Origin: Candidatus Poribacteria bacterium
GTDB lineage: Bacteria > Poribacteria > WGA-4E > WGA-3G
DNA: 64,000 nucleotides
Assembly (NCBI GenBank): GCA_028820845.1
Contig: JAPPII010000004.1
Coordinates: 20,314 to 84,313, forward strand
Reading direction: 5' to 3'
Positions within the stretch are counted from its first letter, which is position 1. The number at the start of each line of letters is the position of its first letter. Below the pieces are notes generated by a model that was not told where the DNA came from, did not search any database, and saw only the letters and a list, made by a program, of their open reading frames with translations. The translations under genes were made by a program, and so were the position numbers. Positions 1 through 35,956 of this stretch are shown here, one piece after another.

Positions 1-2620
1 AGAGCTGCTCCAAGTTAATGAGATTCACCAGTGGGCGTAGGTCTGTTATCGGATTTCGACTCAGGTTAAGTTCTCTGAGGTTCGTGGCAAACTCTAAGCC
101 ACTAATGTTATCGATGCCTTTATCGGAGACCTTTAACTCCTGTAATCGTAGCATTTTTTCTTTCGTAAGCGGTACGTCTGGTAGCAGTCCCATCTCACCG
201 CGCACTGCAATGCGCAACGCAGCGTCTGGCATCCACGCTTCGGCGGGATCGGTTTGTTGGGTCGTCTGTTCGATAACATCGTATTTGAAGTCTGTGAGCT
301 TCAGTTTGGAGAGCGGCGTGAAGTCTGTTATCGGATTTCCCTGTACCCACAAAGTTTCTAAGGCAGTTAACCCCGAAAGTGGATGTACGGCTTCGATGGC
401 GTTATGTCTAATATCCAAGACGCGCAGTTTCGTCAACCCCGCGAGGGGAAGGATATCCGAAATCCCGCTGTTTTCCAGACAGAGATACTCTAAGGCAGTG
501 AGACGCGCTAACTGACGCACGTCTATGAGCGGACTGTTACTCACGTCGAGTTCTCTAAGATTCAATCTGTAGAGTGGACTTAAGTCTATTATCGGATTCC
601 CTTCAATGGATAATATCCGCAGTTTTGTCAATCTCGAAAGCGGTGCTATATCCAAAATGCCGTTTCTTCGTAGAGAGAGAGTCTCTAAGTTTATTAAATT
701 CGTCAACAGATGGAGATCAAGGTTTACCATGGGTGGGGAGACATCTCCGATATGTAAGACTTTAAGTTTCGTTAAGTTTGCGAGCGGTCGTAAGTCTGTT
801 ATTGGATTCTCACTCAGGTACAGTTCTCTGAGATTCGTGGCAAATTCTAAACCTGTGATGTCAAGGATACCTGTGCCTCCCGCATCAAGGTACACCAATC
901 TTAACATCTTCTCTTTTGTCAATGGAACATCTGGTAGGAGTCCGACCTCACCGCGAACGACGGCGCGCAACGCTGGATCTGGCATCCATGCCTCAGAAGG
1001 TTGTGTTTGGACTGCGGGATCCGCGACGGCATCGTATTTTAGATCTATGAGATTCAGTTTGGAGAGGGGATGCAAGTCTTGTATCGGATTCATCTTGATC
1101 CACAATGCTTGCAGATTCATCAAGCCTGTGAGTGGGCTGAAGTCTTTAATATGATTGTCTGTCAGGATGAGATGCTTCAGGCTTTTCAAATTTGCGAGCG
1201 GCGCAACGTTTTGAACGTGGTTGTCAAAAAGGTCTAATTTTTCTAAGTTTATCAGATTTGCAAGCGGACGGAGATCGTCCACATAATTGTCAGCCAAATT
1301 CAGGTAGGTAAGGGCAGTCAGGGAACGCAGTGGAGATATATCAGTTACTTGGTTATTCCAGAGGCTGAGTCCAGTTAGATGGGTCAAGTTCGTGAGGGGT
1401 CTCACGTCTGAGACTTGATTACCACCGACATTGAGATTGATTAGGTCAGTGAGGGCAGCGAGCGGTCTTAAGTCAGTGACATAATTACCCGCATCGCCTA
1501 AATGTAAATCCACTAAATTTTGGGCAAATTCCAAGCCCTTTAAATCCGTAATACCTTTTCCACTCGCATGTAGGCGATGGAGCTCCAGCATTATCTCCTG
1601 CGTTAAAGGGGCGCCTGCCGGAAGTGCCAATTCCTCCCGAACAGCGGCACGCAAGGCGGGATCGGGCATCCAAGGGACGGTATCCGCTGAGTCCACCGAT
1701 GCCCCTGGTGTTGCGGCTGTTTCGGACCCTTGTAATCCGGGACTATTGGTTTCATCGGTCATGAGGGTACGTCCGAATTGATTTTGAAGTGCCGGTTTGG
1801 CGTCGGTGTCAAGGACAATGAGTGTCTCAATAATTTCGATGGTCGGTTCCGATGCTGCCTCGAAACTGTAGGGTCTCTGAAACCGGGCAAGGTATTTGTT
1901 GCTGAGTCCGAGCATCAGCAGCACCAAAATCGCAGCTGCACCGGCTGCGATCCATGGAATGACGGGTTTCGTAGTTGGAGACGGGGTTGACTTCATATTG
2001 ACGGTTTTCTGGGTGATGTTTTCTACGAGGTCAGCAGAAAGTTGGACCCCTCCGAGCGTCTCTTGTATCAAGAGTGTTTCATTTTCTTGTAAACGGCGGC
2101 GTGCGCGCTGCAGACGACTGGTAATCGTATTCACAGAGACCCCAAGGAATCTGCTAATCTCGCGAGTCGTCATTTCACCGAGATAATAGAGCGTCATAAC
2201 AGTCCGTTCGCTCTCTGGGAGTTTATCGAGGAGTTTCTTGACGAGGGCCTGACGATGTTCAGCAGATTCAGCTTCGCGTTGCTCTGATACATAACGGGTG
2301 TATGTGGATTTATCAATTGCTTCCATAGCTGTCTCCAACAACTGGAGTTCGGATTTATGCTTTCGCCGCCAATTGCTGCAGCGTCGACTTGTCATGACAT
2401 AAAGCCATCCAGCAAACTGACGGGGGTCCTTGAGGGTTGAAAGTTTATTGTAGACTTGGAGGAAGGTGTCTTGGGTAATCTCTTCGGCATGGTGAAAGTC
2501 GCCGATCTTCCGCCACGCCAGGGCGTGCACGCTTTTCTGATATTTTCGGACTAAAGCCGTGAAGGCTGCGTCATCGCCCGACAAAATCCTGTGGATCAGT
2601 TGAACATCTTCTTCTATCAT
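1..2620 (-). CDS. ECF (sigma-70 family) RNA polymerase sigma factor domain (about 2003-2620) fused in-frame to one TM helix and a leucine-rich-repeat ectodomain. Partial: the 3' end runs off the window.
   Basis: Minus-strand translation from the ATG at 2620 gives MIEEDVQLIHRILSGDDAAFTALVRKYQKSVHALAWRKIGDFHHAEEITQDTFLQVY...LPESERTVMTLYYLGEMTTREISRFLGVSVNTITSRLQRARRRL, i.e. sigma2 and sigma4 regions. I checked codon by codon from 2620 down to about 1920 and found no stop before MKSTPSPTTKPVIPWIAAGAAAILVLLMLGL, which reads as a TM helix. Downstream are internalin-like LRRs (ITDLKGLEFAQNLVDLHLGDAGNYVTDLRPLAALTDLINLNVGGNQVSDVRPL...). The plus-strand ORFs 18-1154 are antisense artefacts. Confidence 0.6.
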   Translation of the reverse strand, partial: MIEEDVQLIHRILSGDDAAFTALVRKYQKSVHALAWRKIGDFHHAEEITQDTFLQVYNKLSTLKDPRQFAGWLYVMTSRRCSNWRRKHKSELQLLETAMEAIDKSTYTRYVSEQREAESAEHRQALVKKLLDKLPESERTVMTLYYLGEMTTREISRFLGVSVNTITSRLQRARRRLQENETLLIQETLGGVQLSADLVENITQKTVNMKSTPSPTTKPVIPWIAAGAAAILVLLMLGLSNKYLARFQRPYSFEAASEPTIEIIETLIVLDTDAKPALQNQFGRTLMTDETNSPGLQGSETAATPGASVDSADTVPWMPDPALRAAVREELALPAGAPLTQEIMLELHRLHASGKGITDLKGLEFAQNLVDLHLGDAGNYVTDLRPLAALTDLINLNVGGNQVSDVRPLTNLTHLTGLSLWNNQVTDISPLRSLTALTYLNLADNYVDDLRPLANLINLEKLDLFDNHVQNVAPLANLKSLKHLILTDNHIKDFSPLTGLMNLQALWIKMNPIQDLHPLSKLNLIDLKYDAVADPAVQTQPSEAWMPDPALRAVVRGEVGLLPDVPLTKEKMLRLVYLDAGGTGILDITGLEFATNLRELYLSENPITDLRPLANLTKLKVLHIGDVSPPMVNLDLHLLTNLINLETLSLRRNGILDIAPLSRLTKLRILSIEGNPIIDLSPLYRLNLRELDVSNSPLIDVRQLARLTALEYLCLENSGISDILPLAGLTKLRVLDIRHNAIEAVHPLSGLTALETLWVQGNPITDFTPLSKLKLTDFKYDVIEQTTQQTDPAEAWMPDAALRIAVRGEMGLLPDVPLTKEKMLRLQELKVSDKGIDNISGLEFATNLRELNLSRNPITDLRPLVNLINLEQL

Positions 2621-2809
2621 TGTACGCCTCCATGATGAATGGATGGGGTTCGCCTCGTTTCTCGCTGAAGCGAAGTATACTCAGATTCGCAGCAGCCTTG
2701 GGTTAATATACAACGCTTTAACGCGAAAGTCAATTTACGGCAGTGCTGGTGCGATTTTCCAACCGCACCAGCTGGTTAGATATACGCTATGACGCGACGT
2801 AGTATACGC

Positions 2810-5800
2810 CTACTTCAAAATAAGCATCTTTCGCAGGAGCGAGACGTTATCTGCCTGAAATTGGTAGAAATAGATACCGCTTGCGACGCGTTCACCGACT
2901 TCGTTACGACCATTCCAATACGCTGCACGACTCCGCTCTGTGTAATAACCGGCATGCTGATGTCCGAGATTGAGTTGACGGACACGCGTGCCATGCACAT
3001 TGTAGATACTGATTGTCACCTCACTCGCATTCGCCAAGTGATACGGTATCCATGTCTCTGGGTTGAACGGATTCGGATAGTTCGGAAGTAAGGTCGTCTC
3101 TTCAGGTACAAGCAGTGCCAAGAGGCTTTCGAGATAAGCGATCCCTTCTCGGAAGGCAACAGAACCGTCATCTTCAAGTTGTGCCTGGTCTATCCACGCC
3201 TGTACCATCGCAGAATCGAGGTTCTCAATATTGTCCATCACAAGCATGGCAGGGGACGCTGCGCCTGTCGACTCACCAAGATGTTGGGCGACGAGGATGA
3301 GATCCAAAATGGTAATAGTACCGTCGTTTACGTCTGCTTCAGCGTTCGCAGCTGCAGTTTCACCAAACCGCTGCGCGACCCGAATCAGATCCAGAATGCT
3401 GACGCGTCCGTCCTGATTCACATCCCATGCCGGATATTCTCCCACAGTTATAGTGAGGTGAGGCGCGTCCGTAGGTATAACCGTTCCTGTTGCAGAACCA
3501 AACTCAAAATCACTGAGTGTCACTTCGGTTTTCCCACTCGCCTTTGCTGCGAATGTTATTGACAATAACGGACCTGATCCTTTAACCCCGTCTTCAGAGA
3601 TGTGAGCAGCACTGAGTCCGGTAATCTTCCCCAATCTGTTATTGATAGTTCCTTTTTGAAAGAAAGTCGTTCCACCACCGGTCTTCAGGAAGTCGCCTTC
3701 GTTGACTTCAACTGCCTCAAGGGTCGTTGGATCGAATGCGACATCAACCTGCCATCCGGCTAAATCGGCGACGTGTTCTGCATTGAGATCAACCGTAAAC
3801 CTATCGCCAATGAGAACATTTGTTGTGGTTGAAGAGAAGGCAAAATTGCCACCCGGCGGTATCACTGTGTATGCAGTGCCGTCTTCAAATCCGAACAAGC
3901 CCGTCCAACGGTTTTCTTCTGTCTCACTGCTCCCCCTCTCAAAAACAGCAACTAACATAAGGTTTGCGCCCTCTCTGAGCATGACAGGGAAGAATTCTGT
4001 GTAATACGCGTTTCCTCTTGATGTCGGATAGTTGTGAACCAACGCGCCGTTGAGCCAAACTTTAACAGCGTCGCCACTTCCAACAAGCATATTTACCTTC
4101 TGATTTTTCGGAGAACCTATGGTAATCAAACCGTAAGCAACATGACGGGCTGTATCGTCTGTAACTAAGTCTGTAGTTTTCACCACCTCATTTATGTTTC
4201 CGCGTGATGGTGAGATTTTGCCGATTGTCCAGACGTTGTTTCCAAGAGAGGCTCCCTCTTTCACGCCGTTTGTTGCGATGTCCAGTTCTGTTACGGTACC
4301 CTTACTCATCCGTGCCAGAAAATCTATGCCGGATTTAGCAGCATCTATGCTCCACATGCCGGGCGTTGGCGCGATCATCCATAACCACGGCCCCTCTATT
4401 TTCGGGCCCTCTGTTGGGAACCCGGGGTTACCGGCTGTGAATATAGGAATCTTCCCGAATAAGTCTGCTATAGGTGAGAAATCCGATACATTATTGCCTT
4501 CAAGACTTAAGTGTTCCAAGTGACTTAACGACGTGAGGGGCGATACGTCTGATATGCGATTATGCTGAAGCGACAGATCTCTCAAATTTGTTAGGTTTAC
4601 GAGCGGTGAAAGGTCTGATAGGTCTCCCATACTATAAAGTACCAACCTTTTCAAATTTGTTAGATTTGCGAGTGGTGAAAGGTCTGATACCACCCCTGAG
4701 TTGTGGCCCATGTCAAGCCATCTCAAGTTTGTGAGGGCACTCAGCGGGGATATATCATCTATAGCGAGCTCCCAAATTGAAATGCCTTCGAGATGGGCGA
4801 GTTCTGCAAGCGGTGAAAAATCGGATATCATCTTTCCGCTTATCCAAATTTCTTTCAGTGTCTTTAATCTGCCTATGGATCGGGCTAAATCGGATAAATC
4901 GGTTATGAGTTCGCTGCGGAGTTTCAATTGTTCGAGATTTGTCGCCGCCTCCAGTCCTGCGAAATCACGGATGTCATAGTCTCGTGCGCTAAGCGTCCTT
5001 AACGTTGCCATCTCCTCGGCTGTAATTACGGCATTCGGACTCTTGCCAAGTGCTTTCGCAACTGCGGCGCGCAAGTTTGGATCGGAAATATAAACAGATG
5101 CGCCGGGGATGATGTCGGTTTGCGGCGTAACTGGCGTAACGACATTGCTATCAGGAAAACTCAGCGCAGCAACAACGTCACTAAAGTTCGATGTCCATGT
5201 ATCCCGCTTCACCGTACCGGTCTCCAAGACCAGCAACCCTAAACTTTGTAAACTCGCATTCTCACGGATCTTCTGAAGAAATGTCTCCGTTTCTAAACCC
5301 ACACCTGCCGCAGCGTGTGCAGCATCAAGCGGTGCCTGAAATGCCTCGTAGAATCGCTGCGCGGGTTCAATGCCGCCAAATATATCGCCTGCCGCCTCAA
5401 GTGCCTGACGATACCGTTGGGTATCCTCGGATACAAGGCTGTTCATGACAGATTTCGGCACGTAGAGCCGTAAGGCTTGGGCTTTGTTATAGGGTGGGTT
5501 GGCGTTCTGCTGAATAACAGGACGTATCTGGTCTTCAAAGGTTTTCATGCCTTCGGTGTGGCAGCCGATGCACGACAGTCCATTCCGAACGGTCGGATCG
5601 CTCGCAGCCGGATTGGAAACAATACTGATCGGTGCGGCATCCAGTCGGTTCCCACCCCCGTCTGTGAGATAGTATGCTTGTAAACCGTTGGGTAAGTTGA
5701 AGACAACCTCGCCACCATCATAAGTAAAAGATAGCGGATGTGTGAAGATATGCTGCGTTCCGGCACTTCCCGCAAAGTCGTAACTTTTCCAATACGCACC

Positions 5801-6787
5801 ATACCGAGATGTGTGACGTTCCACAACCCGATTATGATTTGAGACCCCCGAATTGTTGAAACCTGCGTGCCAGACGCGTTTTCCCGCAGCGTTCTGGAGA
5901 TTTTCGACGACATTCACCTCAAGCCGCGTTTCCAGCTCCTGAACGGTCGAAGGCAGCCCCAGAATGTCGTGATAGAGGGGTGGCAGTGAAGCAGACGCAA
6001 GGAACCAATCGACATGAACAAATGGCACGTCGCAGTTCATTTTTTGACGTAAAGCCGTCAATTTTTCACGGAGTGTCGTCTCCGTGGGCGCGTTGAACTC
6101 AATACTATACGGATACTCCGCTTCAATCAATGTCCATCGGTTGGCTCCGATCTCCCATTCGTAGTCTCGTAGGTCGATGTAGAAGATTGTCTCTTCTCGG
6201 TCAATGGGTTGTGGTCTGATAACCTCACGTCCCCAAGAAAGGCTGTTCACAAGTTTCGAGAGTGCGCGTTGATAGGCATGCAGTGCCTCGGTCGTTTCAC
6301 CCGCGTTATAAAGATGCGTCATTGTAAAGTAGCGTGCGAAGGTTCGGTCAAACGGTGCGAGTGTGTTGACGTGTCTCTCAATGGTATTCAGCATCTTTTG
6401 CGGTGTAATGAAGGGTCCGCCTGCTTCGGTGGTGCTTCCCCAATCCGGCGCGCCTGCCAGAATCCAACGACGAATGGTATCGGTTGCAGCGGGTGTAAGC
6501 GGGGGTTGTCCAAGCGGCATTCGTTTTTCGGGTCGATTTTCAATGAGACGTTTATAGAGTTCGGAGACGTTCGGTCTTCTCGGAACAACTGCCCCGGTTT
6601 CAATGAGTGTGGTATGCTCAATAATGAGACTCTCGGTGAAGGCACCGTGTTCTCCGTGGCAATTAAGACAGTTCTGTTCAAAAATAGCAGACACTTGTTG
6701 GGCGAGGTTTTCTTGTGCATAAGCACTTCCGAGTCCAAAGGCGATGAGCGTTAGTGTGATTAGAAGAAAAGTTCTTGCTGTTTTCAT
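2810..6787 (-). CDS. Giant secreted multidomain protein (1325 aa). It has a signal peptide, a PSCyt1-type cytochrome-c domain (CxxCH), a DUF1549-like region, an internalin-like LRR block, a LamG-like domain, a cohesin domain, a dockerin type I duplicated segment and a T9SS-type C-terminal sorting domain.
   Basis: Signal peptide MKTARTFLLITLTLIAFGLGSAYAQ. CLNCHGEHG...RMPLGQPPLTPAATDTIRRWILAGAPDW matches the Planctomycete cytochrome-c (PSCyt1) pattern. LRRs: LTNLRWLDMGHNSGVVSDLSPLANLTNLKRLVLYSM...LQHNRISDVSPLTSLSHLEHLSLEGNNVSDFSPI. Cohesin-like: FTVDLNAEHVADLAGWQVDVAFDPTTLEAVEV. Dockerin repeats: DVNQDGRVSILDLIRVAQRFGE and DVNDGTITILDLILVAQHLGE. C-terminal NPFNPETWIPYHL...ISIYNVHGTRVRQL...GIYFYQFQADNVSLLRKMLILK resembles a Por/T9SS tail. 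Confidence 0.8.
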   Translation of the reverse strand: MKTARTFLLITLTLIAFGLGSAYAQENLAQQVSAIFEQNCLNCHGEHGAFTESLIIEHTTLIETGAVVPRRPNVSELYKRLIENRPEKRMPLGQPPLTPAATDTIRRWILAGAPDWGSTTEAGGPFITPQKMLNTIERHVNTLAPFDRTFARYFTMTHLYNAGETTEALHAYQRALSKLVNSLSWGREVIRPQPIDREETIFYIDLRDYEWEIGANRWTLIEAEYPYSIEFNAPTETTLREKLTALRQKMNCDVPFVHVDWFLASASLPPLYHDILGLPSTVQELETRLEVNVVENLQNAAGKRVWHAGFNNSGVSNHNRVVERHTSRYGAYWKSYDFAGSAGTQHIFTHPLSFTYDGGEVVFNLPNGLQAYYLTDGGGNRLDAAPISIVSNPAASDPTVRNGLSCIGCHTEGMKTFEDQIRPVIQQNANPPYNKAQALRLYVPKSVMNSLVSEDTQRYRQALEAAGDIFGGIEPAQRFYEAFQAPLDAAHAAAGVGLETETFLQKIRENASLQSLGLLVLETGTVKRDTWTSNFSDVVAALSFPDSNVVTPVTPQTDIIPGASVYISDPNLRAAVAKALGKSPNAVITAEEMATLRTLSARDYDIRDFAGLEAATNLEQLKLRSELITDLSDLARSIGRLKTLKEIWISGKMISDFSPLAELAHLEGISIWELAIDDISPLSALTNLRWLDMGHNSGVVSDLSPLANLTNLKRLVLYSMGDLSDLSPLVNLTNLRDLSLQHNRISDVSPLTSLSHLEHLSLEGNNVSDFSPIADLFGKIPIFTAGNPGFPTEGPKIEGPWLWMIAPTPGMWSIDAAKSGIDFLARMSKGTVTELDIATNGVKEGASLGNNVWTIGKISPSRGNINEVVKTTDLVTDDTARHVAYGLITIGSPKNQKVNMLVGSGDAVKVWLNGALVHNYPTSRGNAYYTEFFPVMLREGANLMLVAVFERGSSETEENRWTGLFGFEDGTAYTVIPPGGNFAFSSTTTNVLIGDRFTVDLNAEHVADLAGWQVDVAFDPTTLEAVEVNEGDFLKTGGGTTFFQKGTINNRLGKITGLSAAHISEDGVKGSGPLLSITFAAKASGKTEVTLSDFEFGSATGTVIPTDAPHLTITVGEYPAWDVNQDGRVSILDLIRVAQRFGETAAANAEADVNDGTITILDLILVAQHLGESTGAASPAMLVMDNIENLDSAMVQAWIDQAQLEDDGSVAFREGIAYLESLLALLVPEETTLLPNYPNPFNPETWIPYHLANASEVTISIYNVHGTRVRQLNLGHQHAGYYTERSRAAYWNGRNEVGERVASGIYFYQFQADNVSLLRKMLILK

Positions 6788-7325
6788 GGTGTGCGTCCTC
6801 CAGTTTGTGGATAGTATTTTTTGTTTTCCAAAGGTTGCGTGCTACCCCACTCACTGGCGAGGTTTCCTTGAGGAAACACCCAAGCAAAAACACCTCGCCA
6901 ATTGCGGATTTTGCTATAACTTCGTATTAAGACACAATTTTGGGGTAGAAAACGTGCATAAAATGAAAAAAAATGGATTTTTTTTCAAAATGTTCTGTGG
7001 TGAACATGTTTTAGGCGGTTGCCCGCGGCACACGTTTCTGAATGATATGGGGAAGGCATTACGCCTGTTAAGTGGGTTGGAAATTGATCGTGGGGTTGAT
7101 TAGAAATACGTGGGTTTTGACAATGGGACTGTGGCGGACGGCAACCCCCCCTACAGTTTCTTCCGCAAAGGATGGCACAGATTACACGGATTTTGGAGAG
7201 GTGGGAATCAGAGTTTTCTCCTACTGTCGATTCTACAAAGAGATTTTCAGTCGCACGGCTAAGCCTCTAAGAAGTTCTGGTTGCATTTTATACTGCATTC
7301 CCTGATTTCAGAACTGGATGCGGTA

Positions 7326-8879
7326 CTACTCCCGCCACTGCCTTAAAATTCCCTGCAGCTCATCCGCAAGGGGCCGAATGTCACTCTCTCTTTGACCTGC
7401 CTCTAAGCGTGCAACGATCCGGCAGATCTCCGATGCCTCTCTACGTAAACTTTCGGAGAGGCTCTGAAATTTGTTTTTGGCAATCTCTGAAGGCGAATCG
7501 GATGCTGAACTGTATATCGCATCCAATTGGTTCATTAGGTTAGACAAACCTGACCGCGTGTTTCCGAGTCGTCCGATCTCTGCATCTGGGATGTACTTTA
7601 ACCGATCCCACACCCAACTTTCGGGGGCTCCACTACTGGGGAGAAAGAGTATGGACACAGTACTTTTTGCAGCGTCTTGTATTTTAAACGCGATTTCACC
7701 ATTTCTCTGGTCCCCATCAAGAACGAAAACAGTATTTTGAATCTGACCGAATTTTCTTAACGTCTCAGCGGGCATTGGAAACTGACTTGCCCCAGTATCT
7801 CGTCCAATGCGGATTGCTTCCCTATTCATTCCTTCTTTTGCGAGTAAAAAGTCAAATATACCTTCTAAGATACCTTCAGCGATGTCGTCTTCACAGAGCA
7901 GTTTGAGCATCTCGCTGGAACGTCCGTAGAGTGCATTCTGAATTAAGTCCCGATATGCTGGGCGCACAACAACCTCGACTGACGCGTCGTCTCGGTCAAG
8001 AAAAATCCTGCCGTTGAGAGGGACTGAATCAAGAACAACTGGACTGTGAGATGTTACAATAATCTGGAGATCGTTGCGGAGTGCAAGTTGTTGTAGATGC
8101 AACATAAGTAGTTGTTGCACCCAAGGATGCAGTCCGGCTTCTACTTCGTCAATCAAAACGAGTGCCCCATCGAGTTGCGTAATCTCTTTCGACAACCGCA
8201 GGATCGCACGTTCCCCAGCCGCCATGTGTAGTTCTGAATAAGCCGCACCGCCTTCTTGGGCAGCAAAAAGCAAGTTTTTGTTGCCACTGACCAGACTCAC
8301 CACCTCCGAATATCTGAAAGGAAGCATCTGATGGGCAAATTCAATCTGTGATGCAGTTAGAGGTGTTTCTTCCGGCGGTTCGGATTTCAGACGCGACATG
8401 CTGAGAACACCGCGTACCTCAGATGGATTCCTCAGATTGCTCAGAGTTCTGAGATAGACCTGTCGCTCCGGTTGACTGGCGTTTTGACGACCGAAGAAAC
8501 TCCGATTCCAACCCTTGGTACGTCGCCATCGCATGGAGGTCTCGCCTTCAGGAGTCTGGTAATAGAACTCCATCGTGACCGTTTGCTGCATATCTTGATG
8601 TCTGCCAAGTTTAGGGCGATAATCGGGAAAGAGTGTGGATGGAACGAATTCCCTAACCCCCGCACCCGGCACCTTATAAGCGCATGCTGTGGCAAAAAGT
8701 ACCGTTGACTTACCAGTCGTATTTCCACCAGCAATTACACTTACCGGGTAATCAAATGGAACTCTTAAGTTATTGAATCCACGGATACCATCCAAGCGGA
8801 TTGCCGACAAAAAATGCGGTAGATGCGGTTTCTTGCCTTGCAAATTTCTCCCGAGTTCTTCTAAGCGTCTCTCAAGCAC
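7326..8879 (-). CDS. OLD-family (Overcoming Lysogenization Defect) ATP-dependent endonuclease-like protein. It has an N-terminal ABC/AAA_21-type ATPase and a C-terminal TOPRIM-like segment. Candidate stand-alone anti-phage gene.
   Basis: Walker A VIAGGNTTGKSTVLFATA. Walker B and signature region LVLIDEVEAGLHPWVQ...IVTSHSPVVLDS. C-terminal ...DDIAEGILEGIFD... and ...VFVLDGDQRNG... resemble the TOPRIM conserved Glu and DxD motifs. Confidence 0.55.
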   Translation of the reverse strand: MLERRLEELGRNLQGKKPHLPHFLSAIRLDGIRGFNNLRVPFDYPVSVIAGGNTTGKSTVLFATACAYKVPGAGVREFVPSTLFPDYRPKLGRHQDMQQTVTMEFYYQTPEGETSMRWRRTKGWNRSFFGRQNASQPERQVYLRTLSNLRNPSEVRGVLSMSRLKSEPPEETPLTASQIEFAHQMLPFRYSEVVSLVSGNKNLLFAAQEGGAAYSELHMAAGERAILRLSKEITQLDGALVLIDEVEAGLHPWVQQLLMLHLQQLALRNDLQIIVTSHSPVVLDSVPLNGRIFLDRDDASVEVVVRPAYRDLIQNALYGRSSEMLKLLCEDDIAEGILEGIFDFLLAKEGMNREAIRIGRDTGASQFPMPAETLRKFGQIQNTVFVLDGDQRNGEIAFKIQDAAKSTVSILFLPSSGAPESWVWDRLKYIPDAEIGRLGNTRSGLSNLMNQLDAIYSSASDSPSEIAKNKFQSLSESLRREASEICRIVARLEAGQRESDIRPLADELQGILRQWRE

Positions 8880-27173: not shown

Positions 27174-28259
27174 CTAAATCTCAGGCACTCGGACCGCAAC
27201 CTCTTTCCCTGCTGCGTGTGAGCGGAAGATACCGTCCATAATCACATTCGTGAGTAGGACACCCTCTGGGGGTATCGGAGACGGTGCGTCCGCTTTAACG
27301 GCTTCACGGAACGCCGTCATCTGTGCCTCCCAAACATCGACCTCTGGGAATCCTGAGAGTTGGATCGTGGTCATCCCCTCTGGTGGGTTCGGCGCTGCTG
27401 TCAAACCTTCCGATTCAACTAACTTCTTAAGTTCACCGCCGTATTCATCGGCATAGATAGTGGGTCCACCCAAAGAGATACCCATTTCCTTACCGAGACA
27501 GAAACTCGGACCGAGTGAATCCTGATGAATTGCCCAAGAGATCTTGAACACCATCACGCTGCCGTCTTCAAACCGGACCCACGCCACACCGAACTCTTCG
27601 ACATCCATAATACCGCGGAACCTCGGATCTTGCTGCGAAATATAGTCTTCGGTGATAGCCGAGACGCGCACGGGTTTCGGATACCCCATCGCATACAACG
27701 AGTTGTGCATGTTATAGACCCCGATGTCAACGATTGCACCGGCACCCGCAGTCTTTTTATAGATGAACGTACGCCCTGGATTCCCACGCCGTCTGCCTCC
27801 TGAGGATTCGGAATAGTAGATGTCGCCGAGAAAACCTTCATCGATGACCTTCTTGGCGAACTGGAGTCTCGGATTGAACGTGCTGTGGAGACCGATTTGC
27901 AGGATTTTACCGGATGCCTTTGCTGCGCGTGCCATAGCCGTTGCATCGGGGAGTTTGGCTGCCATCGGTTTTTCACAGAAGACGTGTTTACCGGCATTCA
28001 GTGCCGCGACAGTGGGTCGGCGGTGACCTTGGTTGTAAGTACAGACGCTAACTGTATCGATCTCGTCCATCTCAAGCATTTTGTTGTAGCTTGTGAAGAC
28101 GTGTTTTTTCGGGACACCCCACTGTTCGGCGGCTTCGTTTGCCTTGCTTTTGATGATGTCGCAGACGGCAACGATCTCAAAACCCCCGACTTTCATGTAG
28201 GTTCTCTGGTGTGCGCGGGAAATACCACCTGTGCCCACAATACCGACTCGAATCGTCAT
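27174..28259 (-). CDS. Gfo/Idh/MocA family NAD(P)-dependent oxidoreductase, copy 1 of a tandem pair.
   Basis: MTIRVGIVGTGGISRAHQ...VAVCDI... N-terminal Rossmann fold. Largely identical to 28356-29441. Confidence 0.85.
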   Translation of the reverse strand: MTIRVGIVGTGGISRAHQRTYMKVGGFEIVAVCDIIKSKANEAAEQWGVPKKHVFTSYNKMLEMDEIDTVSVCTYNQGHRRPTVAALNAGKHVFCEKPMAAKLPDATAMARAAKASGKILQIGLHSTFNPRLQFAKKVIDEGFLGDIYYSESSGGRRRGNPGRTFIYKKTAGAGAIVDIGVYNMHNSLYAMGYPKPVRVSAITEDYISQQDPRFRGIMDVEEFGVAWVRFEDGSVMVFKISWAIHQDSLGPSFCLGKEMGISLGGPTIYADEYGGELKKLVESEGLTAAPNPPEGMTTIQLSGFPEVDVWEAQMTAFREAVKADAPSPIPPEGVLLTNVIMDGIFRSHAAGKEVAVRVPEI

Positions 28260-28355: not shown

Positions 28356-29441
28356 CTAAATCTCAGGCACTCGGACCGCTACCTCTTTCTGTGCTTTATG
28401 CGATCGGAAGATACCATCCATAATCACATTTGTGAGCAGGACCCCTTCTGGTGGTATTGGCGACGGTGCGTCTGCTTTGACGGCTTCACGGAACGCGATC
28501 ATCTGTGCCGCCCAGTTATCTTCCTCTGGGAATCCTGAGAACCGAATCGTCGTCATTCCTTCCGGCGGGTTCGGTTCCGCTGTCAACCCTTCCGATTCAA
28601 CAAACTTCTTGAGATCCCCGCTGTATGCATCGGCGTAGACAACCGGTCCATCCAACGAGATCCCCGCTTTTTGACCAAGATGGAAGTTGCCGCCGAGAGA
28701 ATCCTGATGCACCGCCCAGGAGATTTTGAACACCAGCACGCCACCATTTTCAAACCGGACCCACGCCACACCGAACTCTTCGACATCCATGATACCGCGG
28801 AATCTCGGATCTTGCTGCGAAATGTAATCCTCGGTGATAGCAGAGACGCGCACGGGTTTCGGATACCCCATCGCATACAGCGATCTGTGCATGTTATAGA
28901 CACCGATATCAACGGTTGCCCCCGCGCCTGCTGTCTTTTTGTAGATGAACGTATGTCCCGGATTCCCACGTCGTCTGCACCCGGCAGATTCGGAGTAGTA
29001 GATGTCGCCGAGCAAGCCTTCATCGATCATCTTCCTTGCGAATTGGAGTCTCGGACTAAACGTCGGGTTGAGACCGATTTGCAGGATTTTGCCGGATGCC
29101 TTTGCTGCGCGGGCCATAGCAGTCGCATCGGGTAGCGTCGCTGCCATCGGTTTTTCACAGAGGACGTGTTTACCGGCGTTCAGTGCAGCGACGGTGGGTC
29201 GACGGTGTCCTTGATTATACGTGCAGACGCTAACTGCATCCAGTGCGTCCATTTCGAGCATTTTATTATAGCTGGAGAAGGCGTGCTTTCTGGGGACACC
29301 CCACTCGTCAGCGGCTTGATTCGCCTTACTTTTGATGATGTCGCAGACAGCAACAATCTCGAAACCCCCGACTTTCGTATAATACTGCTGGTGCGCACGC
29401 GAAATGCCACCCGTACCAATGATACCGACTCGGACTGTCAT
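28356..29441 (-). CDS. Gfo/Idh/MocA family oxidoreductase, copy 2 of the tandem pair.
   Basis: MTVRVGIIGTGGISRAHQQYYTKVGGFEIVAVCDIIKSKAN... Confidence 0.85.
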   Translation of the reverse strand: MTVRVGIIGTGGISRAHQQYYTKVGGFEIVAVCDIIKSKANQAADEWGVPRKHAFSSYNKMLEMDALDAVSVCTYNQGHRRPTVAALNAGKHVLCEKPMAATLPDATAMARAAKASGKILQIGLNPTFSPRLQFARKMIDEGLLGDIYYSESAGCRRRGNPGHTFIYKKTAGAGATVDIGVYNMHRSLYAMGYPKPVRVSAITEDYISQQDPRFRGIMDVEEFGVAWVRFENGGVLVFKISWAVHQDSLGGNFHLGQKAGISLDGPVVYADAYSGDLKKFVESEGLTAEPNPPEGMTTIRFSGFPEEDNWAAQMIAFREAVKADAPSPIPPEGVLLTNVIMDGIFRSHKAQKEVAVRVPEI

Positions 29442-29864
29442 ATTATATCACCCCATGAGCAGAATTGAATTGACATAAGAGTGTAGACGAAACCGGTTTG
29501 CAATGCAAGCGAAAAATAATCCATCATTTGTATACTTTGCAGACGCGCCACTTTCACTTCTAACATGCCGGCTCTTTCTTCCTGTAGGAGCGAGCTGTGC
29601 TCGCGACTTTTTTATCTCCCGATTTAAAAACTAATCTTCACCAAAATTAGTAGGCGAGGTTTCTAACCTCGCCGGTTCTCAGTCCACGATATAAACATTT
29701 CCCATTCATGCTTGCTCATAGTGCCTTGATAATTCTAAAATCTACTGCAACGACCTTCGGAAATTTGACACTTATTTGCATATTGTGATATACTTTGTAT
29801 ACCAACAGCCAAAATCAAACGTTGTATTTTCTATACATATACTTTGCTGGAAGGGACAAAATTT

Positions 29865-31271
29865 ATGACAGAGGCACCGTACAGCATCTTTGATTCACGC
29901 ACTCCTGACGATATCCACCATGAGATTCAAAAGGTTTATCTTGAAAACGCCCGACCATGGGTCATCGGATACAGCGGCGGAAAAGACTCGACGACTGCAC
30001 TTCAACTGATTTGGTATGCCCTTGCTGAATTGCCGCCAGAACAAAGGAAATATCCGGTCTACGTGATTTCATCTGATACATTGGTTGAGACACCGGTGAT
30101 TGTGAGCTACATCACTGGCACCTTAGACCGTATCGAGACGACTGCCCGCGAACAAAAGATGCCGTTTCAGACGGCCCTCGTCCGTCCAAAGACGGAAGAT
30201 ACCTTCTGGGTGAATCTCATCGGCAAAGGTTACCCTGCCCCGTATACACGCTTCCGGTGGTGTACGGACCGAATGAAAATCCAGCCAGCGAATCGGTTCA
30301 TATTGGAAAAAGTTGCTGAACACGGTGAAGTTATAATGGTTCTCGGGGTTCGCAAAGGTGAAAGTGCAACGCGCGATCAAGTCTTAAGTTTGCACCGTAT
30401 GAAAGATTCGCTCCTTTCACGACACACGACGTTACCCAATGCTTTTGTTTATACGCCTGTGGTCGATTTTACCATGGAAGACGTGTGGATGTATCTGTTA
30501 TCCAATCCCTCCCCGTGGGGCGGTGATAATCGACAGTTGGTGACACTCTATCGCAACACGAGCGCGGAAGGTGAGTGTCCTTTGGTGGTTGACGAGACAA
30601 CGCCATCTTGTGGAAACAGCCGCTTTGGATGCTGGACCTGCACTGTTGTAACAAAGGATAAAGCGATGGAAGGCCTAATTGATAGCGGGGAAGATTGGAT
30701 GCTACCCCTGCTTGAATTCCGTGACTTTCTTGCTGAGACCCAAGATCCTGTAAGGAAACCTGAAGTCCGCGAGCATCGTCGACGGAATGGACAAGTTATG
30801 ATCCTCAATAACAAACTTGTCCACGGTCCCTATACGTTGGACTTTTGCAAGGAACTCTTAACAAGACTTCTCACAACCCAGCAACAGGTTCGTAGAGACG
30901 GACCTGACCCAGATATCAAACTCATCACGGACGACGAGCTCGAAGAGATACGCAGGATCTGGCGAACCGAACGCCAAGATTGGGAAGACGCTGTCCCACA
31001 AATCTACACTGAGATTGTTGGAGACCGCGATTGGATCGTTGATAATACCCTCTCCTTTACTGAAAAGGATAAAGATATTTTGGAGGCGATCTGCAATGAA
31101 AACGGAATCCCTGTTACCCTTGTTGCAAAATTATTGGACACAGAGCGACAGATGGATGGAATGAGTCGACGTGCTGGAATACAATCCCGAATTGACGAGA
31201 TATTCCATGAGGATTGGCGTTCAGAAGAAGAAGTCCGGGCCGGTTTAGATAACGGTGATTTCCAACAATGA
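29865..31271 (+). CDS. dndC: DndC-like PAPS-reductase-fold ATP pyrophosphatase (DNA phosphorothioation protein DndC family).
   Basis: PP-loop WVIGYSGGKDSTTALQLIW. DndC-type Cys cluster ...ECPLVVDETTPSCGNSRFGCWTCTVV.... The ATG at 29865 is preceded by ggaaggg. A TTGACA-N18-TATACT promoter candidate lies at about 29776-29806. Confidence 0.8.
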   Translation: MTEAPYSIFDSRTPDDIHHEIQKVYLENARPWVIGYSGGKDSTTALQLIWYALAELPPEQRKYPVYVISSDTLVETPVIVSYITGTLDRIETTAREQKMPFQTALVRPKTEDTFWVNLIGKGYPAPYTRFRWCTDRMKIQPANRFILEKVAEHGEVIMVLGVRKGESATRDQVLSLHRMKDSLLSRHTTLPNAFVYTPVVDFTMEDVWMYLLSNPSPWGGDNRQLVTLYRNTSAEGECPLVVDETTPSCGNSRFGCWTCTVVTKDKAMEGLIDSGEDWMLPLLEFRDFLAETQDPVRKPEVREHRRRNGQVMILNNKLVHGPYTLDFCKELLTRLLTTQQQVRRDGPDPDIKLITDDELEEIRRIWRTERQDWEDAVPQIYTEIVGDRDWIVDNTLSFTEKDKDILEAICNENGIPVTLVAKLLDTERQMDGMSRRAGIQSRIDEIFHEDWRSEEEVRAGLDNGDFQQ

Positions 31272-33295
31272 TTATCCACAAGCTCACTCTTAACAATATT
31301 GGTCTGTTCCGCGGGACACAAACTATTAATCTTACACCGAACGGCAAGGGCCCCATAATCCTTATTGGCGGGATGAACGGGGCTGGTAAAACGACGCTCT
31401 TAGACGCAATTCGTCTTTGTTTGTACGGCAGGCGGTCCCTTGGGAACCGCGTCAGCCACAATGAATATTATGACTATCTCTCTTCATTGATTCATCGCGG
31501 TTCTGATTCAACAATACCTTTGAATCACGCTGCTGTATCACTTGAGTTTGAATATGCACACAGTGGAGAAACGAAACAATACCGTATTGAACGCACATGG
31601 CAACGGTCTGGCTCAAAACACCATAGCGTTAGCGAAGGTTTGACAATCTCCGAAAATAACTGGTTGAATACCGAATTTGACGCGGAACATTGGCAGGATC
31701 GTATTTATGAGTTTATCCCTATTGGGGTCTCCCAATTCTTTTTTTTCGACGGTGAGGACATCCAAAAATTGGCAGACGACTCCAAGCACGACCTATATCT
31801 CGCTGAGTCAACCAAAGCGTTGCTTGGGATAAACTTGGTGGAGCGATTACAATCGGATTTGCGTATCTACGCGAATCGTCTCGTGAAGCGTGATAGCCCT
31901 GAACCGGTCCAGAAAGAAATTGTGGAAGTAGAAGCAGAAATTGCTACGCTTGAGTCTGCACTCAGAGATACATACGTACGTGCAGAAGCTTTGGACATTC
32001 AAAGTGAGAAACTGGAAAACCAGATTGAGAGACAAGAATTGATCATTGCAGCCGAAGGTGGAGGTTATGCAGCGAAGCGAGAAAGCCTGAAAGTACAACA
32101 GGGACAGCTTCTTGCTGATATTGAGGCGTTGGAGACTGATATCCGAGACCTATGCGGTGAACTGTTTCCGTTTGCCTTAGTCCCTGATCTGCTCAAGAAA
32201 CTGGAAGATCGGCTCCTTAAAGAGATTGAATTAGACGAATGGGAAGCAAAGAATCTCGCCTTAGAATCTGTCAACACTGAAGTACTTAAGACCTTGGCAT
32301 CTGCCGCATTTTGGGATAGTGTCTCTTTACCTGAACCACAAATTGAAGCAGTTCGTTCCAAAATCACGCCATTCCTGAAAACCCAACTTGAAAAAACAAA
32401 ACGTGAACAACCAGAGACACTTCGCGGCTTCAAGAAGATCCGGGACCGCTCTCCTTCGGAGTACGGTCACCTATTGGAGTGGATTGATGCCTGCCTTAAT
32501 GAAGTGCCTCAAGAATTTCGTGAGTTGAATGATACATTAGCAAAAGCACAATTAGAACTGCAAAAGGTGGATCAGGACCTTCAGAAAGTCCCAGCCGAAG
32601 AGGTCTTGAAACCACTGATCGAAAAATTGTCCCTGTCAAATCAAGAACTTGGACAACTCCATAAAGAGGAACAAGAGGCAGAACAATCTATCAAATCTTT
32701 AGAGTATCAACTTGAAGTGGCAGAGCGAAAATTGGATAAACTGCGTCACACACAACAATTAGGAGAAGCACACGTCCAACGTCAACAACGCGTAGAAAAC
32801 GTGCAATCGGTGCTTTCTGCTTACACAACACGGTTGACCCAAGCTAAAATCGCTACATTGAGTGAGGCCATTGTACAAGGTTTTAATCAACTTTCACATA
32901 AACCCGATCGGATTAGACGCGTTGAAATTGACCCCCTGACCTTTGCTGTGACGCTCTATGATACCCAGAATCGCGCACTACGAAAAGAGAAGTTATCCGC
33001 GGGTGAGAAACAAATTTACACAACTGCCCTTTTATGGGCATTAGCGAAAACATCAGGTAAGGCATTACCGATGATTCTTGACACCCCGCTTGGACGTTTG
33101 GACAGTAGTCACAGACGACTTCTTATTGAACGTTATTTTCCGTATGCGAGTCATCAAGTTGTTCTGTTGTCAACCGACACCGAGGTCCAGGGATACTTGC
33201 GTTCGCTATTGGATCCCTACATTTCGCGTACTTTCCACTTGGTGTATCAACAAGTTGAAGGGTATACGACAATAAAGGAAGGCTATTTTGGGTAA
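31268..33295 (+). CDS. dndD: DndD-like SMC/ABC-type ATPase (DNA sulfur modification protein DndD family).
   Basis: N-terminus MIIHKLTLNNIGLFRGTQTINLTPNGKGPIILIGGMNGAGKTTLLDAIRLCLYG is the characteristic DndD start with Walker A. Long coiled-coil middle region. C-terminal signature and Walker B ...LSAGEKQIYTTALLWAL...PMILDTPLGRLD. The start overlaps the dndC stop (ATGA). Confidence 0.85.
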   Translation: MIIHKLTLNNIGLFRGTQTINLTPNGKGPIILIGGMNGAGKTTLLDAIRLCLYGRRSLGNRVSHNEYYDYLSSLIHRGSDSTIPLNHAAVSLEFEYAHSGETKQYRIERTWQRSGSKHHSVSEGLTISENNWLNTEFDAEHWQDRIYEFIPIGVSQFFFFDGEDIQKLADDSKHDLYLAESTKALLGINLVERLQSDLRIYANRLVKRDSPEPVQKEIVEVEAEIATLESALRDTYVRAEALDIQSEKLENQIERQELIIAAEGGGYAAKRESLKVQQGQLLADIEALETDIRDLCGELFPFALVPDLLKKLEDRLLKEIELDEWEAKNLALESVNTEVLKTLASAAFWDSVSLPEPQIEAVRSKITPFLKTQLEKTKREQPETLRGFKKIRDRSPSEYGHLLEWIDACLNEVPQEFRELNDTLAKAQLELQKVDQDLQKVPAEEVLKPLIEKLSLSNQELGQLHKEEQEAEQSIKSLEYQLEVAERKLDKLRHTQQLGEAHVQRQQRVENVQSVLSAYTTRLTQAKIATLSEAIVQGFNQLSHKPDRIRRVEIDPLTFAVTLYDTQNRALRKEKLSAGEKQIYTTALLWALAKTSGKALPMILDTPLGRLDSSHRRLLIERYFPYASHQVVLLSTDTEVQGYLRSLLDPYISRTFHLVYQQVEGYTTIKEGYFG

Positions 33296-33588
33296 TACTA
33301 AAATTTGGACAGTTCGTTTTGTTTCAAGTTGTGTTTTCCAATACCTCGGTGTTTTTCAGCAAGTTTTCCTAAAGGTGTAGTTCGCCAAAAAACAGGATTT
33401 CGGGTGAGAATATAAGCAACCCTTGCAGAATGCCACACGCGCATTCTGCATTGATTCCGGGGTGACATGTGTCATAAAATCTGAAGTAGGTGTCAAAAAA
33501 TTTGTGTTCAATTCAACTGCCTCACGGGAATTCTTAAAATTGTCCAAAGTTTAGTAAATCTATACACAAGTAGGGAAACAACATATTA

Positions 33589-34575
33589 ATGAAAAAGATA
33601 CGTAAAAGGACAATAGGATCTGTTAAGTCAGAACTTCTTGCTAAGGCACGAGAGGCAGCTTTATGTGCTATCCAAATTTTCAATTCCCCTCAAATTTTCT
33701 TCAAATCAGAGACTTTTATAGTCCTTATGGTAATAGCATGGACCTATATGCTTCATGCTTACTACAGATCTAAAGGTATCGAATACCGGTATTATAAACA
33801 GAGAGGTAAGAGAAAATCCTTTGAGCGAACTAAACATAAATCTTATAGATATTGGGAACTTGAAACCTGTTTAAGGCGTGATGAGTGCCCAATTGACATT
33901 AACACAACTAATAATCTTCTATTTCTGATAGGGCTCCGTCACGAAATTGAACATCAAATGACTCGTTCACTTGATAACTATCTGAGTGGCCACTATCAAG
34001 CATGTGCTCTGAACTTCAATCACTACATGAAGGAACTCTTTGGAGACAGATATGGCATCGATGATCATTTGGCATTCAGCATCCAGTTTATGAAACATTC
34101 GGAGGAACAAATTCTTGGTTCCAAGCCTGAGCCAAATATTCCAGAGCATCTACAAACTTATATTACTGAATTTAATGCTAGCCTAACCGAGGATCAGCGT
34201 AACAGTGAAAATTATGTAATCCGGCTAGTGTTCCGACCAAAGTTAGTTAATCGCCCGGGGCAAGCAGACAAGGTTATTGACTTTGTTAAGCCTGACTCAG
34301 CAGCTCCTTTTGAAGATAACGGGACATTGTACGTAACAACAAAGGAGATCGAACGTCCTAAACTCCTCCCTTCCGCTGTGGCGGCAAAGGTGCAAGAAGC
34401 AGGTTTTAAAAAGTTCAGGACTCAACCAGAGCATGTCAGGATGTGGAAAGCAGAAGATGCAAAGAATCCCAGCAAAGGATATGGCGTTGAAGTGCAAGGT
34501 CAATGGTATTGGTATGAATCTTGGGTTAAACGCTGTCTTGAATTGTGTAAAGCAGCTGGCGATCTTTACCGTTGA
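33589..34575 (+). CDS. Hypothetical protein with a HEPN-like R-x4-H motif; possible abortive-infection-type effector.
   Basis: LLFLIGLRHEIEHQMT contains RHEIEH (Rx4H) inside a predicted helical region. No other family recognised. AT-rich codon usage typical of the island. Confidence 0.35.
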   Translation: MKKIRKRTIGSVKSELLAKAREAALCAIQIFNSPQIFFKSETFIVLMVIAWTYMLHAYYRSKGIEYRYYKQRGKRKSFERTKHKSYRYWELETCLRRDECPIDINTTNNLLFLIGLRHEIEHQMTRSLDNYLSGHYQACALNFNHYMKELFGDRYGIDDHLAFSIQFMKHSEEQILGSKPEPNIPEHLQTYITEFNASLTEDQRNSENYVIRLVFRPKLVNRPGQADKVIDFVKPDSAAPFEDNGTLYVTTKEIERPKLLPSAVAAKVQEAGFKKFRTQPEHVRMWKAEDAKNPSKGYGVEVQGQWYWYESWVKRCLELCKAAGDLYR

Positions 34576-34616
34576 GAGACCAATCGAGTGTTAAATAATC
34601 CTTAAGCCATTCGTAG

Positions 34617-35573: not shown

Positions 35574-35782
35574 CTTTTTACTGATACTGTGTTAAGTAAG
35601 ACTGGCAATTTTCTGGTGTCGGGTGTGAGACCGCAACCTATTTTTCACTAATACTGTGTAGCTTAAACACGGGGTATAAAAGTCTTTGACAAGATCTGCT
35701 CCATCGGAACGATATTCGTATTTTAACGAGATTTCTTTGAGTGATATAAAAGTTTTTCCAAAAAGTTAACTGTTTTCTAACA

Positions 35783-35845: not shown

Positions 35846-35956
35846 AATCCTGAAAATCCTGATTCAGATGATTAACGCCTCCCATTGTAAATGCAGAGTA
35901 GCAATTCTGTTGGCTACACGCCTCTATCATGAAATTAGAATCAATAAAGCCGTAAC

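Follow-up and report, generated by a model that had tools for sequence, protein, structure and literature searches.

Sigma factors of the extracytoplasmic function (ECF) type that are bound to the membrane or carry extensions are well established, among them IutY, the groups ECF48, ECF52 and ECF53, and the WD40-type group ECF57 (PMC8999054; PMC8567305). In all, 19 ECF groups with C-terminal extensions have been described (PMC7826278, PMC8999054, PMC8567305), and as a rule the ECFs with one type of extension cluster in one group (PMC7826278). IutY of Pseudomonas putida (ECF243) is inactive in its membrane-bound form and is activated by Prc and RseP proteolysis; it is the only fusion of this kind whose activation by regulated proteolysis has been shown experimentally (PMC8999054). 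Here we consider a 64,000-nucleotide stretch from a Candidatus Poribacteria bacterium (contig JAPPII010000004.1, positions 20,314 to 84,313; hereafter the window), at whose left edge one open reading frame (ORF) joins an ECF sigma factor, a transmembrane (TM) helix and an ectodomain of leucine-rich repeats (LRRs). A first-pass annotation of this DNA had remarked that repeat-bearing ECF fusions are known elsewhere, which holds for the WD40-type ECF57 (PMC8999054; PMC8567305). An LRR-type ECF fusion is undocumented in the literature that we searched, and the search returned no paper linking Poribacteria with ECF sigma factors.

The feature that the annotation had seen is real, with its position amended: the gene lies on the minus strand, and its 3' end is beyond the left edge of the window, with about 90 C-terminal residues outside (the orthologues have 966 aa). 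It is absent from the program-made list of ORFs solely because it runs off this edge. Translation of 2620 to 1 gives, in frame and in this order, ...TSRLQRARRRLQENETLLIQ..., then NMKSTPSPTTKPVIPWIAAGAAAILVLLMLG; the strings quoted by the annotation are thus present, and its claim that no stop separates sigma4 from the TM-LRR part is correct for all the codons visible. The gene is made up of the following parts; the predicted local confidence score (pLDDT) is that of an AlphaFold2 (AF2) model.

1..2620, minus strand: membrane-anchored ECF sigma-LRR fusion ORF (ATG at 2620; 873 codons visible, without a stop)
2354..2554, minus strand: sigma2 domain, aa 23-89 (Pfam PF04542 Sigma70_r2, 45.3 bits; AF2 pLDDT 80-90)
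2090..2242, minus strand: sigma4 domain, aa 127-177 (Pfam PF08281 Sigma70_r4_2, 57.4 bits)
1958..2089, minus strand: cytoplasmic linker from sigma4 to the membrane, aa 178-221 (about 40 aa), with two short predicted helices and no Cys or His
1889..1957, minus strand: single TM helix, aa 222-244 (hydrophobic segment at about aa 220-245; AF2; family alignment)
1766..1888, minus strand: extracytoplasmic juxtamembrane segment, aa 245-285, YLARFQRPYSFEAASEPTIEII..., conserved and common to all ectodomain classes
1676..1765, minus strand: poorly conserved spacer, aa 286-315, joining the conserved module to the variable ectodomain
956..1675, minus strand: LRR module 1, aa 316-555, opening with the cap motif WMPDPALRAAVR
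224..955, minus strand: LRR module 2, aa 556-799, cap motif WMPDPALRAVVR
2..223, minus strand: LRR module 3, aa 800-873, cut by the window edge, cap motif WMPDAALRIAVR

The domain searches came out as the annotation had expected, with Sigma70_r2, Sigma70_r4_2 (cutoffs of 24 bits for PF04542 and 25.7 bits for PF08281) and LRR_4 all found, together with a single hydrophobic segment at about aa 220-245. Pfam also matched Sigma70_ECF, the LRR_4 matches amounted to nine stretches from about aa 320, and regions Sigma70_r1 and r3 were not among the Pfam matches of the window protein. In NCBIfam, TIGR02937 (sigma70-ECF) scored 100.4 bits against a cutoff of 42.9, and no subfamily or equivalog model reached its cutoff for the window protein. 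The connector between sigma2 and sigma4 is 37 aa long. The closest solved sigma is SigW, the alignment being restricted to aa 9-179. In the AF2 model of aa 1-300, the sigma domains are confident; they are followed by linker helices at 182-189 and 196-210 with pLDDT 53-69 and then by the TM helix. Each of the three LRR modules starts with an internalin-like WMPDxALRxxVR cap. Full-length class 1 internalins were not matched in NCBIfam (internalin_A, 217.9 against a cutoff of 1600 bits; InlH, 206 against 1050 bits), and what the window protein has in common with Listeria InlA and InlH is the type of LRR alone. The spacer is rich in Ser, Thr, Pro and Gly as judged by eye. The protein has no N-terminal signal sequence, and by hand count the TM flanks of the family consensus have net charges of about +2 before the helix and -1 behind it; both agree with an N-in orientation. 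We infer a single-pass topology with sigma2-sigma4 inside and the LRR modules outside the cytoplasmic membrane.

This architecture is not confined to one gene. A protein search with aa 1-330 of the window protein returned hundreds of relatives, and every match with an organism name was from Candidatus Poribacteria; among the 120 matches listed, identity to the window protein was 57-82% over 83-100% of these first 330 aa. A genome scan gave 335 relatives, and the family counts in this report rest on the best 80 loci (labelled L001, L010 and so on), which belong to Poribacteria metagenome-assembled genomes (MAGs) and one "uncultured bacterium" MAG. In nearly all of the approximately 94 ORFs extracted from these loci, a lone hydrophobic segment lies at aa 220-242, and another 200-800 residues come after it. 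Across about 90 paralogues, column identity is about 0.9 in sigma2 and sigma4, about 0.7 in the linker and TM helix (linker, 0.62-0.73) and 0.75-0.91 in the juxtamembrane segment (YLARFQKPYSFEAQSEPTIEII...), and it drops below 0.5 after about aa 300, so that a module reaching to about aa 290 is conserved throughout the family. In the TM helix, P222 and W223 are invariant and G227 and G238 nearly so; in the juxtamembrane segment, Q248, P250, Y251, F253, P259 and T260 are invariant. The only conserved cysteine is the nearly invariant C81 in sigma2, and sigma4 has none. We therefore define the family by a module of about 290 aa that comprises sigma2, sigma4, the 40-aa linker, a TM helix starting with P-W and the motif YLxRFQxPYSFEAxSEPT. 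The window protein has every invariant residue of the family alignment.

The part of this module behind the sigma domains is found almost exclusively in fused form. An exhaustive phmmer search of 1.84 billion proteins with the linker-TM-juxtamembrane module found only 236 cluster representatives; the matches lie almost always at target positions of about 180-300, which means that the module is fused behind a sigma. A word-indexed search with aa 178-315 gave only 12 proteins, all short and fragment-like, and the linker-TM-juxtamembrane region has no Pfam match. Taken together, these results describe a multi-copy paralogue family, restricted so far to Poribacteria, in which a conserved module is combined with interchangeable sensor ectodomains, and the window gene almost certainly encodes a genuine membrane-anchored ECF sigma factor of this family.

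The ectodomains, classified in 85 complete copies, fall into at least six unrelated types: LRR with a GHL15-like part (29 copies), inactive M16-like (21), BNR/sortilin propeller (20), multi-LRR (9, the class of the window protein), Kelch (3) and unknown folds. No WD40 ectodomain was found among these 85 copies. The sigma cores remain 60-80% identical between paralogues despite the swapped sensors. Although the annotation had called an LRR version unusual, LRRs are the commonest ectodomain within the family (39 of the 85 complete copies). A few other forms were also observed. One complete ORF of 304 aa (L039:6784-7698) is a "headless" sigma-TM-juxtamembrane protein ending after the spacer, and similar database matches of about 300 aa (P0010, P0011, P0014 and P0039) lie on contigs of megabase scale. 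A sigma without a TM helix is fused directly to a BNR-like propeller at L046:2102-4909 (935 aa), and one stand-alone soluble sigma of 196 aa occurs among the approximately 94 ORFs (L020:2438-3028).

The annotation had regarded the chain as sigma, anti-sigma and receptor in one. The fusion of sigma, TM helix and LRRs stands; the anti-sigma is unsupported, as Pfam and NCBIfam gave no anti-sigma match in the whole protein or for aa 178-315, including none to FecR, RskA or zf-HC2. Because aa 178-221 are free of Cys and His, there is also no ZAS motif (HxxxCxxC). A known anti-sigma domain in aa 178-315 was considered and rejected, this region having no Pfam match and the module being essentially always fused.

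Upstream of the paralogues lies a common bipartite element, which is preceded by a T-tract and has the consensus AtTATGCACgtTTTccncnccaAAATTgcGTCTTTAa. The family form of the motif is ATGCAcGTTTT...AAAATnnGTCTTTAA, with ATGCACGTTTT as its -35 half and AAAATnnGTCTTTAA as its -10 half. Searching 1.45 Mb of the loci with a two-block position weight matrix, and dinucleotide shuffles of them as a control, gave 112 matches in the loci and 0 in the shuffles. With the match in the window included, 111 of 113 are co-directional with the sigma genes and 41 lie directly upstream of sigma fusions, and 77 of 91 fusions have the motif within 5 kb upstream on the same strand. The other ORFs behind the motif start with a hydrophobic signal or anchor segment in 60 of 61 cases. 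These neighbours encode WD40 propellers and PD40/TolB-like, LamG lectin-like, Kelch and M16-like proteins as well as ABC-2 permeases; homologues of the 1325-aa protein encoded next to the fusion in the window are also among them.

A link between the sigma factors and this motif is suggested by the recognition helix of sigma4. The sigma4 columns with the highest entropy are 164, 167 and 171, whose spacing (i, i+3, i+7) places them on one face of the helix, and the invariant R169, R172, A173 and R176 flank them. From the residues at 164, 165, 167, 168 and 171, the -35 hexamer is predicted correctly for each of the 35 direct promoters, in the following pairs.

Helix (N/H)TTS(Q/H/K): -35 TGCACG, 14 of 14 direct promoters
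Helix SAHNY: -35 TGCGAA, 5 of 5 direct promoters
Helix ETRTH: -35 TGTAAC, 4 of 4 direct promoters
Helix KT(G/S)S(R/H/S/T): -35 TGCAG(T/G/A), 11 of 11 direct promoters
Helix NTASQ: -35 TGCACA, 1 of 1 direct promoters

The promoters of non-sigma neighbours behave in a similar way: of 21 promoters next to KTHSH fusions, 19 are TGCACA or TGCAAG, and of 30 next to (N/H)TTS(Q/K) fusions, 27 are TGCACG. If each paralogue reads its own promoter variant, a pairing of helix and -35 sequence is to be expected, and this is the pairing that we see. In the window protein, the helix carries N164, T167 and Q171, and its type, NTTSQ, is the one that matches the TGCACG promoter of the window. On these grounds, the window sigma factor probably reads the bipartite motif.

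Several loci give a closer view of the genes behind the motif. In the M16 class (L018, L024, L026, L038, L049, L052, L053, L061, L068 and L073), the gene directly upstream is driven by the motif, and its secreted product matches the ectodomain of the fusion beside it with 57-74% identity over about 410 aa, and fusions of other loci with up to 75%; these upstream genes are found at about 7.6-8.6 kb, closely followed by the sigma fusion at 10001, and in L073 at 184. Because the upstream protein resembles the ectodomain, the M16-like sensor can be regarded as a tethered paralogue of its co-regulated exported neighbour. In the Kelch class (L063), the upstream exported protein is about 36% identical to the fusion ectodomain. 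Upstream of BNR-class fusions, three tandem ABC-2-type membrane paralogues of 474-528 aa are found at L071:3118-9900 and L074:2943-9900, each with its own motif copy of the TGCAAG type; the ABC-2 assignment is supported by Pfam for a similar L066 protein only.

In the window, the fusion gene is accompanied by the following features.

2810..6787, minus strand: 1325-aa gene, co-directional with and upstream of the sigma gene (domain searches)
6925..6962, minus strand: family bipartite promoter motif TTTATGCACGTTTTCTACCCCAAAATTGTGTCTTAATA, TGCACG type, with a T-tract before it
2745..2772, minus strand: strong 12-bp stem-loop without a U-tract, after the 1325-aa gene (minimum free energy of the region -25.6 kcal/mol, z = -3.18)
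2705..2733, minus strand: housekeeping-type promoter-like site TTGACT-17-TATATT, about 85 nt upstream of the sigma ATG (consensus match)

As the annotation had stated, the fusion gene lies directly downstream of, and on the same strand as, the gene for a secreted LRR protein (6787..2810, 1325 aa). This protein has a Sec-type signal peptide, a PSCyt1/cytochrome-c-like haem motif, LRRs, a cohesin, a dockerin and a C-terminal sorting domain of the type IX secretion system (T9SS). The motif TTTATGCACGTTTTCTACCCCAAAATTGTGTCTTAATA ends 137 nt upstream of its ATG. It stands alone in the 64-kb window, where relaxing the threshold to 16 bits yields no further match, which rules out the motif as a general Poribacteria promoter. 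The ATGCA...GTCTTTAA promoter with the matching helix type, which characterises the family, is thus found at the level of the operon and not directly before the window sigma gene. A comparable layout exists in L010, where the motif is followed by genes for 1331 aa, 678 aa and the sigma fusion with gaps of 81-85 bp and no separate motif before the sigma gene; the 1331-aa orthologue is 84% identical to the 1325-aa protein of the window. Homologues of the latter occur near sigma fusions in about 20 of the 80 loci. From its sequence, the region 6962..1 suggests one autoregulated two-gene unit, in which the two genes would be co-transcribed.

The annotation had also proposed that the two proteins form a ligand/receptor-like pair. 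Their link is upheld by the motif upstream of the pair, the L010 layout and the recurrence in about 20 of 80 loci, and the pairing itself is not: the LRRs of the neighbour and of the sensor are 40% identical over 225 aa, which ranks 6 of 38, so that the similarity is generic and a pair-specific likeness was rejected.

The intergenic region may add a layer of control. No terminator was called at the stem-loop of 2745..2772, which may nonetheless terminate transcription in part or stabilise the transcript; it could determine how much exported protein is made relative to the sensor, or shield the upstream transcript at its 3' end. The site TTGACT-17-TATATT has 10 of 12 consensus matches and is weak alone, 1 such site having been found against 1.0 expected in shuffles; basal expression of the sigma gene may start from it. 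Attenuation at the hairpin together with basal expression from this internal site is possibly how the two genes are balanced. No Rfam leader RNA was matched in 1..7400. Directly before the start codon of many fusion paralogues, including L001-L009, we observed a conserved leader element (A)AATCCATTCAT(C/T)A(T/C)GGAG, which in the window (2624-2650, minus strand) reads CCATCCATTCATCATGGAGG and extends well past the Shine-Dalgarno sequence; it may be a translational control element or simply reflect recent common ancestry.

Based on these findings, we propose the following mechanism. Membrane tethering would keep the sigma factor from RNA polymerase or from DNA. A signal sensed by the LRR ectodomain would license cleavage in the conserved juxtamembrane/TM region, first at site 1 and then by a site-2 protease within the membrane, in the way established for IutY. 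Once set free, the sigma2-sigma4 part could bind RNA polymerase and activate promoters of the TGCACG type, including that of its own operon, which would amount to positive autoregulation: the promoter at 6962 would drive the gene for the 1325-aa exported LRR/cohesin/dockerin/T9SS protein and then the sigma-LRR gene. Counted in favour of proteolytic release are the invariant or nearly invariant Pro and Gly residues of the TM helix and the conservation of the juxtamembrane segment whatever the ectodomain. We give release by regulated proteolysis slightly less than an even chance; the explanation as a whole, comprising architecture, family, promoter, autoregulation and mechanism, we consider somewhat better than evenly balanced.

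Several observations weigh against this explanation. The AF2 model has no confident structure for aa 247-300, and its predicted template modelling score (pTM) is 0.37. Family searches found neither a recognisable anti-sigma domain nor a protease site in the fusion, and the proteolysis step is inferred from the analogy with IutY and from conservation. By a rough count by eye, the spacing between -35 and -10 appears longer than in textbook ECF promoters. The family motif is absent from the 189-bp region upstream of the sigma gene itself, and co-transcription is uncertain because the hairpin and the sigma70-like site lie between the 1325-aa and sigma genes. The pairing of helix and -35 sequence comprises only about five clade-like classes, that is, about five independent contrasts, and co-inheritance of gene and promoter could contribute to it.

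It has to be asked whether the fusion could be an artefact or a pseudogene, in which a lost stop or a frameshift joined a sigma gene to an anti-sigma-like TM-LRR gene, or whether a second protein is made from M209, an ATG (codon 1996..1994, within the interval 1990-2010 that the annotation had singled out) just before the TM helix. The window alone leaves room for a single-base error, but the same fusion is present in about 90 ORFs of many independent assemblies, among them complete Poribacteria chromosomes, and the L001 orthologue is an intact 966-aa ORF of the same architecture. Against four orthologues, the ratio of nonsynonymous to synonymous substitution rates (dN/dS) is 0.07-0.13 in the sigma domains, 0.22-0.34 in the linker-TM-juxtamembrane part and 0.19-0.26 in the LRRs; since it is low across all parts, all are kept in one frame, and the in-frame purifying selection spans the junction. 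In addition, the linker-TM-juxtamembrane module is almost never unfused. As for an internal start, M209 is not conserved (the consensus at this position is I/K), inspection by eye shows nothing resembling a Shine-Dalgarno sequence before it, and no separate stop ends the sigma ORF. Thus, both the missing stop and the independent start at M209 were rejected; across the family, a second, conserved start for a TM-LRR protein of its own is excluded, and the artefact has next to no chance of being the explanation and is, on the comparison of the sequences, effectively refuted. A different sigma factor, for instance one of the stand-alone 196-aa type, might instead read the motif, with the fusions being members of its regulon or decoys for RNA polymerase or a partner. 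The association of motif and fusions is correlative, and a soluble 196-aa member (L020_2438) and a fusion without a TM helix (L046_2102) do exist, which also counts against the explanation that we prefer. However, the -35 variants follow the helix residues of the adjacent fusion itself in all 35 direct cases, stand-alone copies are rare (1 of about 94 ORFs), and within the fusion proteins purifying selection is strongest on the sigma domains (dN/dS 0.07), all of which makes this alternative very improbable.

The remaining alternatives accept the sigma factor and concern the way in which it is switched. The linker could act in cis as a minimal anti-sigma that docks between sigma2 and sigma4 in the manner of CnrY, a short class II anti-sigma peptide, until a signal relayed through the TM helix relieves it with or without proteolysis. 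The linker is conserved (column identity as given above) and has two predicted helices, the order of inhibitory segment, TM helix and ectodomain is that of single-pass anti-sigmas, and CnrH (4cxf) is among the solved relatives of the sigma part; yet the pLDDT of the linker is as low as 53-69, and it has no sequence similarity to any anti-sigma family, so we rate this as rather improbable. Such cis-inhibition is compatible with either proteolytic release or activity of the tethered protein. The latter would resemble ToxR or CadC: the protein would stay uncleaved, a ligand would shift its oligomeric state or conformation, and the membrane-bound sigma would recruit RNA polymerase to nearby DNA. 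This would suit the short, conserved linker, the lack of a detectable protease site or anti-sigma domain, the headless proteins of about 300 aa (L039_6784), which show that the module can stand alone, and the local regulons in neighbouring genes. Nevertheless, a permanently tethered active sigma was not found in the ECF literature that we surveyed, promoter escape by a sigma anchored 40 residues from the membrane seems sterically demanding, and IutY, the sole experimentally characterised membrane-bound fusion, is activated by proteolysis (PMC8999054). We therefore regard an active tethered sigma as unlikely, and keep proteolytic release as the working model.

The remainder of the window consists of ordinary housekeeping genes, with a few observations to add. 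Directly upstream of the promoter motif lies a gene for an AAA_15/AAA_21 (OLD/AbiEii-like) ATPase (7326-8879, minus strand), and the region 29844-37219 encodes a 675-aa protein (31268-33295) with a P-loop-like N-terminus (GGMNGAGKTT), flanked by uncharacterised ORFs; both may be related to defence. Two tandem 361-aa paralogues at 27174-28259 and 28356-29441 (minus strand) have near-identical N- and C-termini (MT(I/V)RVGI(V/I)GTGGISRAHQ...) as if an oxidoreductase-like gene had recently been duplicated in tandem. At 38475-39305 and 39312-40115 (plus strand), adjacent paralogous proteins of 276 and 267 aa share start and end motifs and have hydrophobic, signal-peptide-like N-termini.

Eukaryote-like repeat proteins, such as those with LRR, WD40 or Kelch repeats, are a genomic hallmark of sponge symbionts, and we know of essentially no account of how their expression is controlled. 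What we describe suggests a family of dedicated regulators, for which a promoter, specificity residues and local regulons are predicted, and these predictions can be tested in heterologous hosts although Poribacteria are uncultured. A tentative and rather doubtful extension is that the family represents modular one-component ECF signalling, in which the module has been recombined with ectodomains paralogous to exported eukaryote-like proteins (LRR, Kelch, M16-like, BNR), and in which pairs of -35 element and sigma4 helix, diverged at three residues of the latter, form insulated local circuits for the repertoire of exported repeat proteins. If that were true, the cues could be the host, the matrix or the exported proteins themselves, and the window gene, as the LRR-sensing member, would have a T9SS-exported protein with LRRs, cohesin and dockerin under its control. 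For the study of ECF sigma factors, the family provides, ready-made in nature, sigma cores that are nearly identical but joined to different extracytoplasmic sensors, together with a small set of helix/-35 specificity pairs that could serve as orthogonal parts, and it raises the question of how a tethered sigma without a recognisable anti-sigma is switched off and on. What is mainly gained concerns the family: its sensors are modular, and a promoter, a specificity code and a regulon of exported eukaryote-like proteins are predicted for it.

Among the known systems, IutY likewise combines in a single chain an ECF sigma at the N-terminus, one TM helix and, at the C-terminus, a sensor part outside the cytoplasm. 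IutY is characterised by a FecR-type anti-sigma/periplasmic domain, a TonB-dependent receptor and iron signalling, whereas the family of the window has no FecR domain, has the 40-aa linker and LRR or other repeat ectodomains, and is massively paralogous; no TonB-dependent receptor is among the annotated genes around the window pair. ECF48, ECF52 and ECF53 of Actinobacteria (e.g., SCO4117) also consist of a sigma, 1-2 TM helices and an extracytoplasmic region, here a proline-rich spacer with a binding domain, and their activation by proteolysis has been proposed; the window protein, in which more than 600 aa come after its one hydrophobic segment (aa 220-245), conforms to this outline. In those groups, however, a zinc-finger (ZAS-like) anti-sigma stands between sigma4 and the TM helix; the linker of the window protein has neither ZAS nor zf-HC2, and phylum and ectodomains differ. 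ECF57 of Planctomycetes resembles the family in its long C-terminal repeat extensions and in its many young paralogues within one lineage (PMC8999054; PMC8567305). Its extensions are WD40-like repeats, and two conserved cysteines have been proposed to link sigma2 and sigma4; the window protein, in contrast, has an LRR extension, its family has the single conserved C81, and WD40 proteins are separate members of the regulon. With SigW/RsiW and RpoE/RseA, the family would have in common extracytoplasmic input, a single TM helix, a membrane-held sigma and autoregulation from an ECF-type promoter, but its sigma and membrane sensor form one covalent chain, in which no anti-sigma domain could be detected. 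By its sequence features, then, the family is set apart from IutY-type, ECF48/52/53 and ECF57 proteins as these have been described, lacking the defining features of each, and, going by the papers compared here, it is apparently undescribed so far. It also departs from the rule that one type of extension belongs to one ECF group, since a single sigma core is here combined with many ectodomains.

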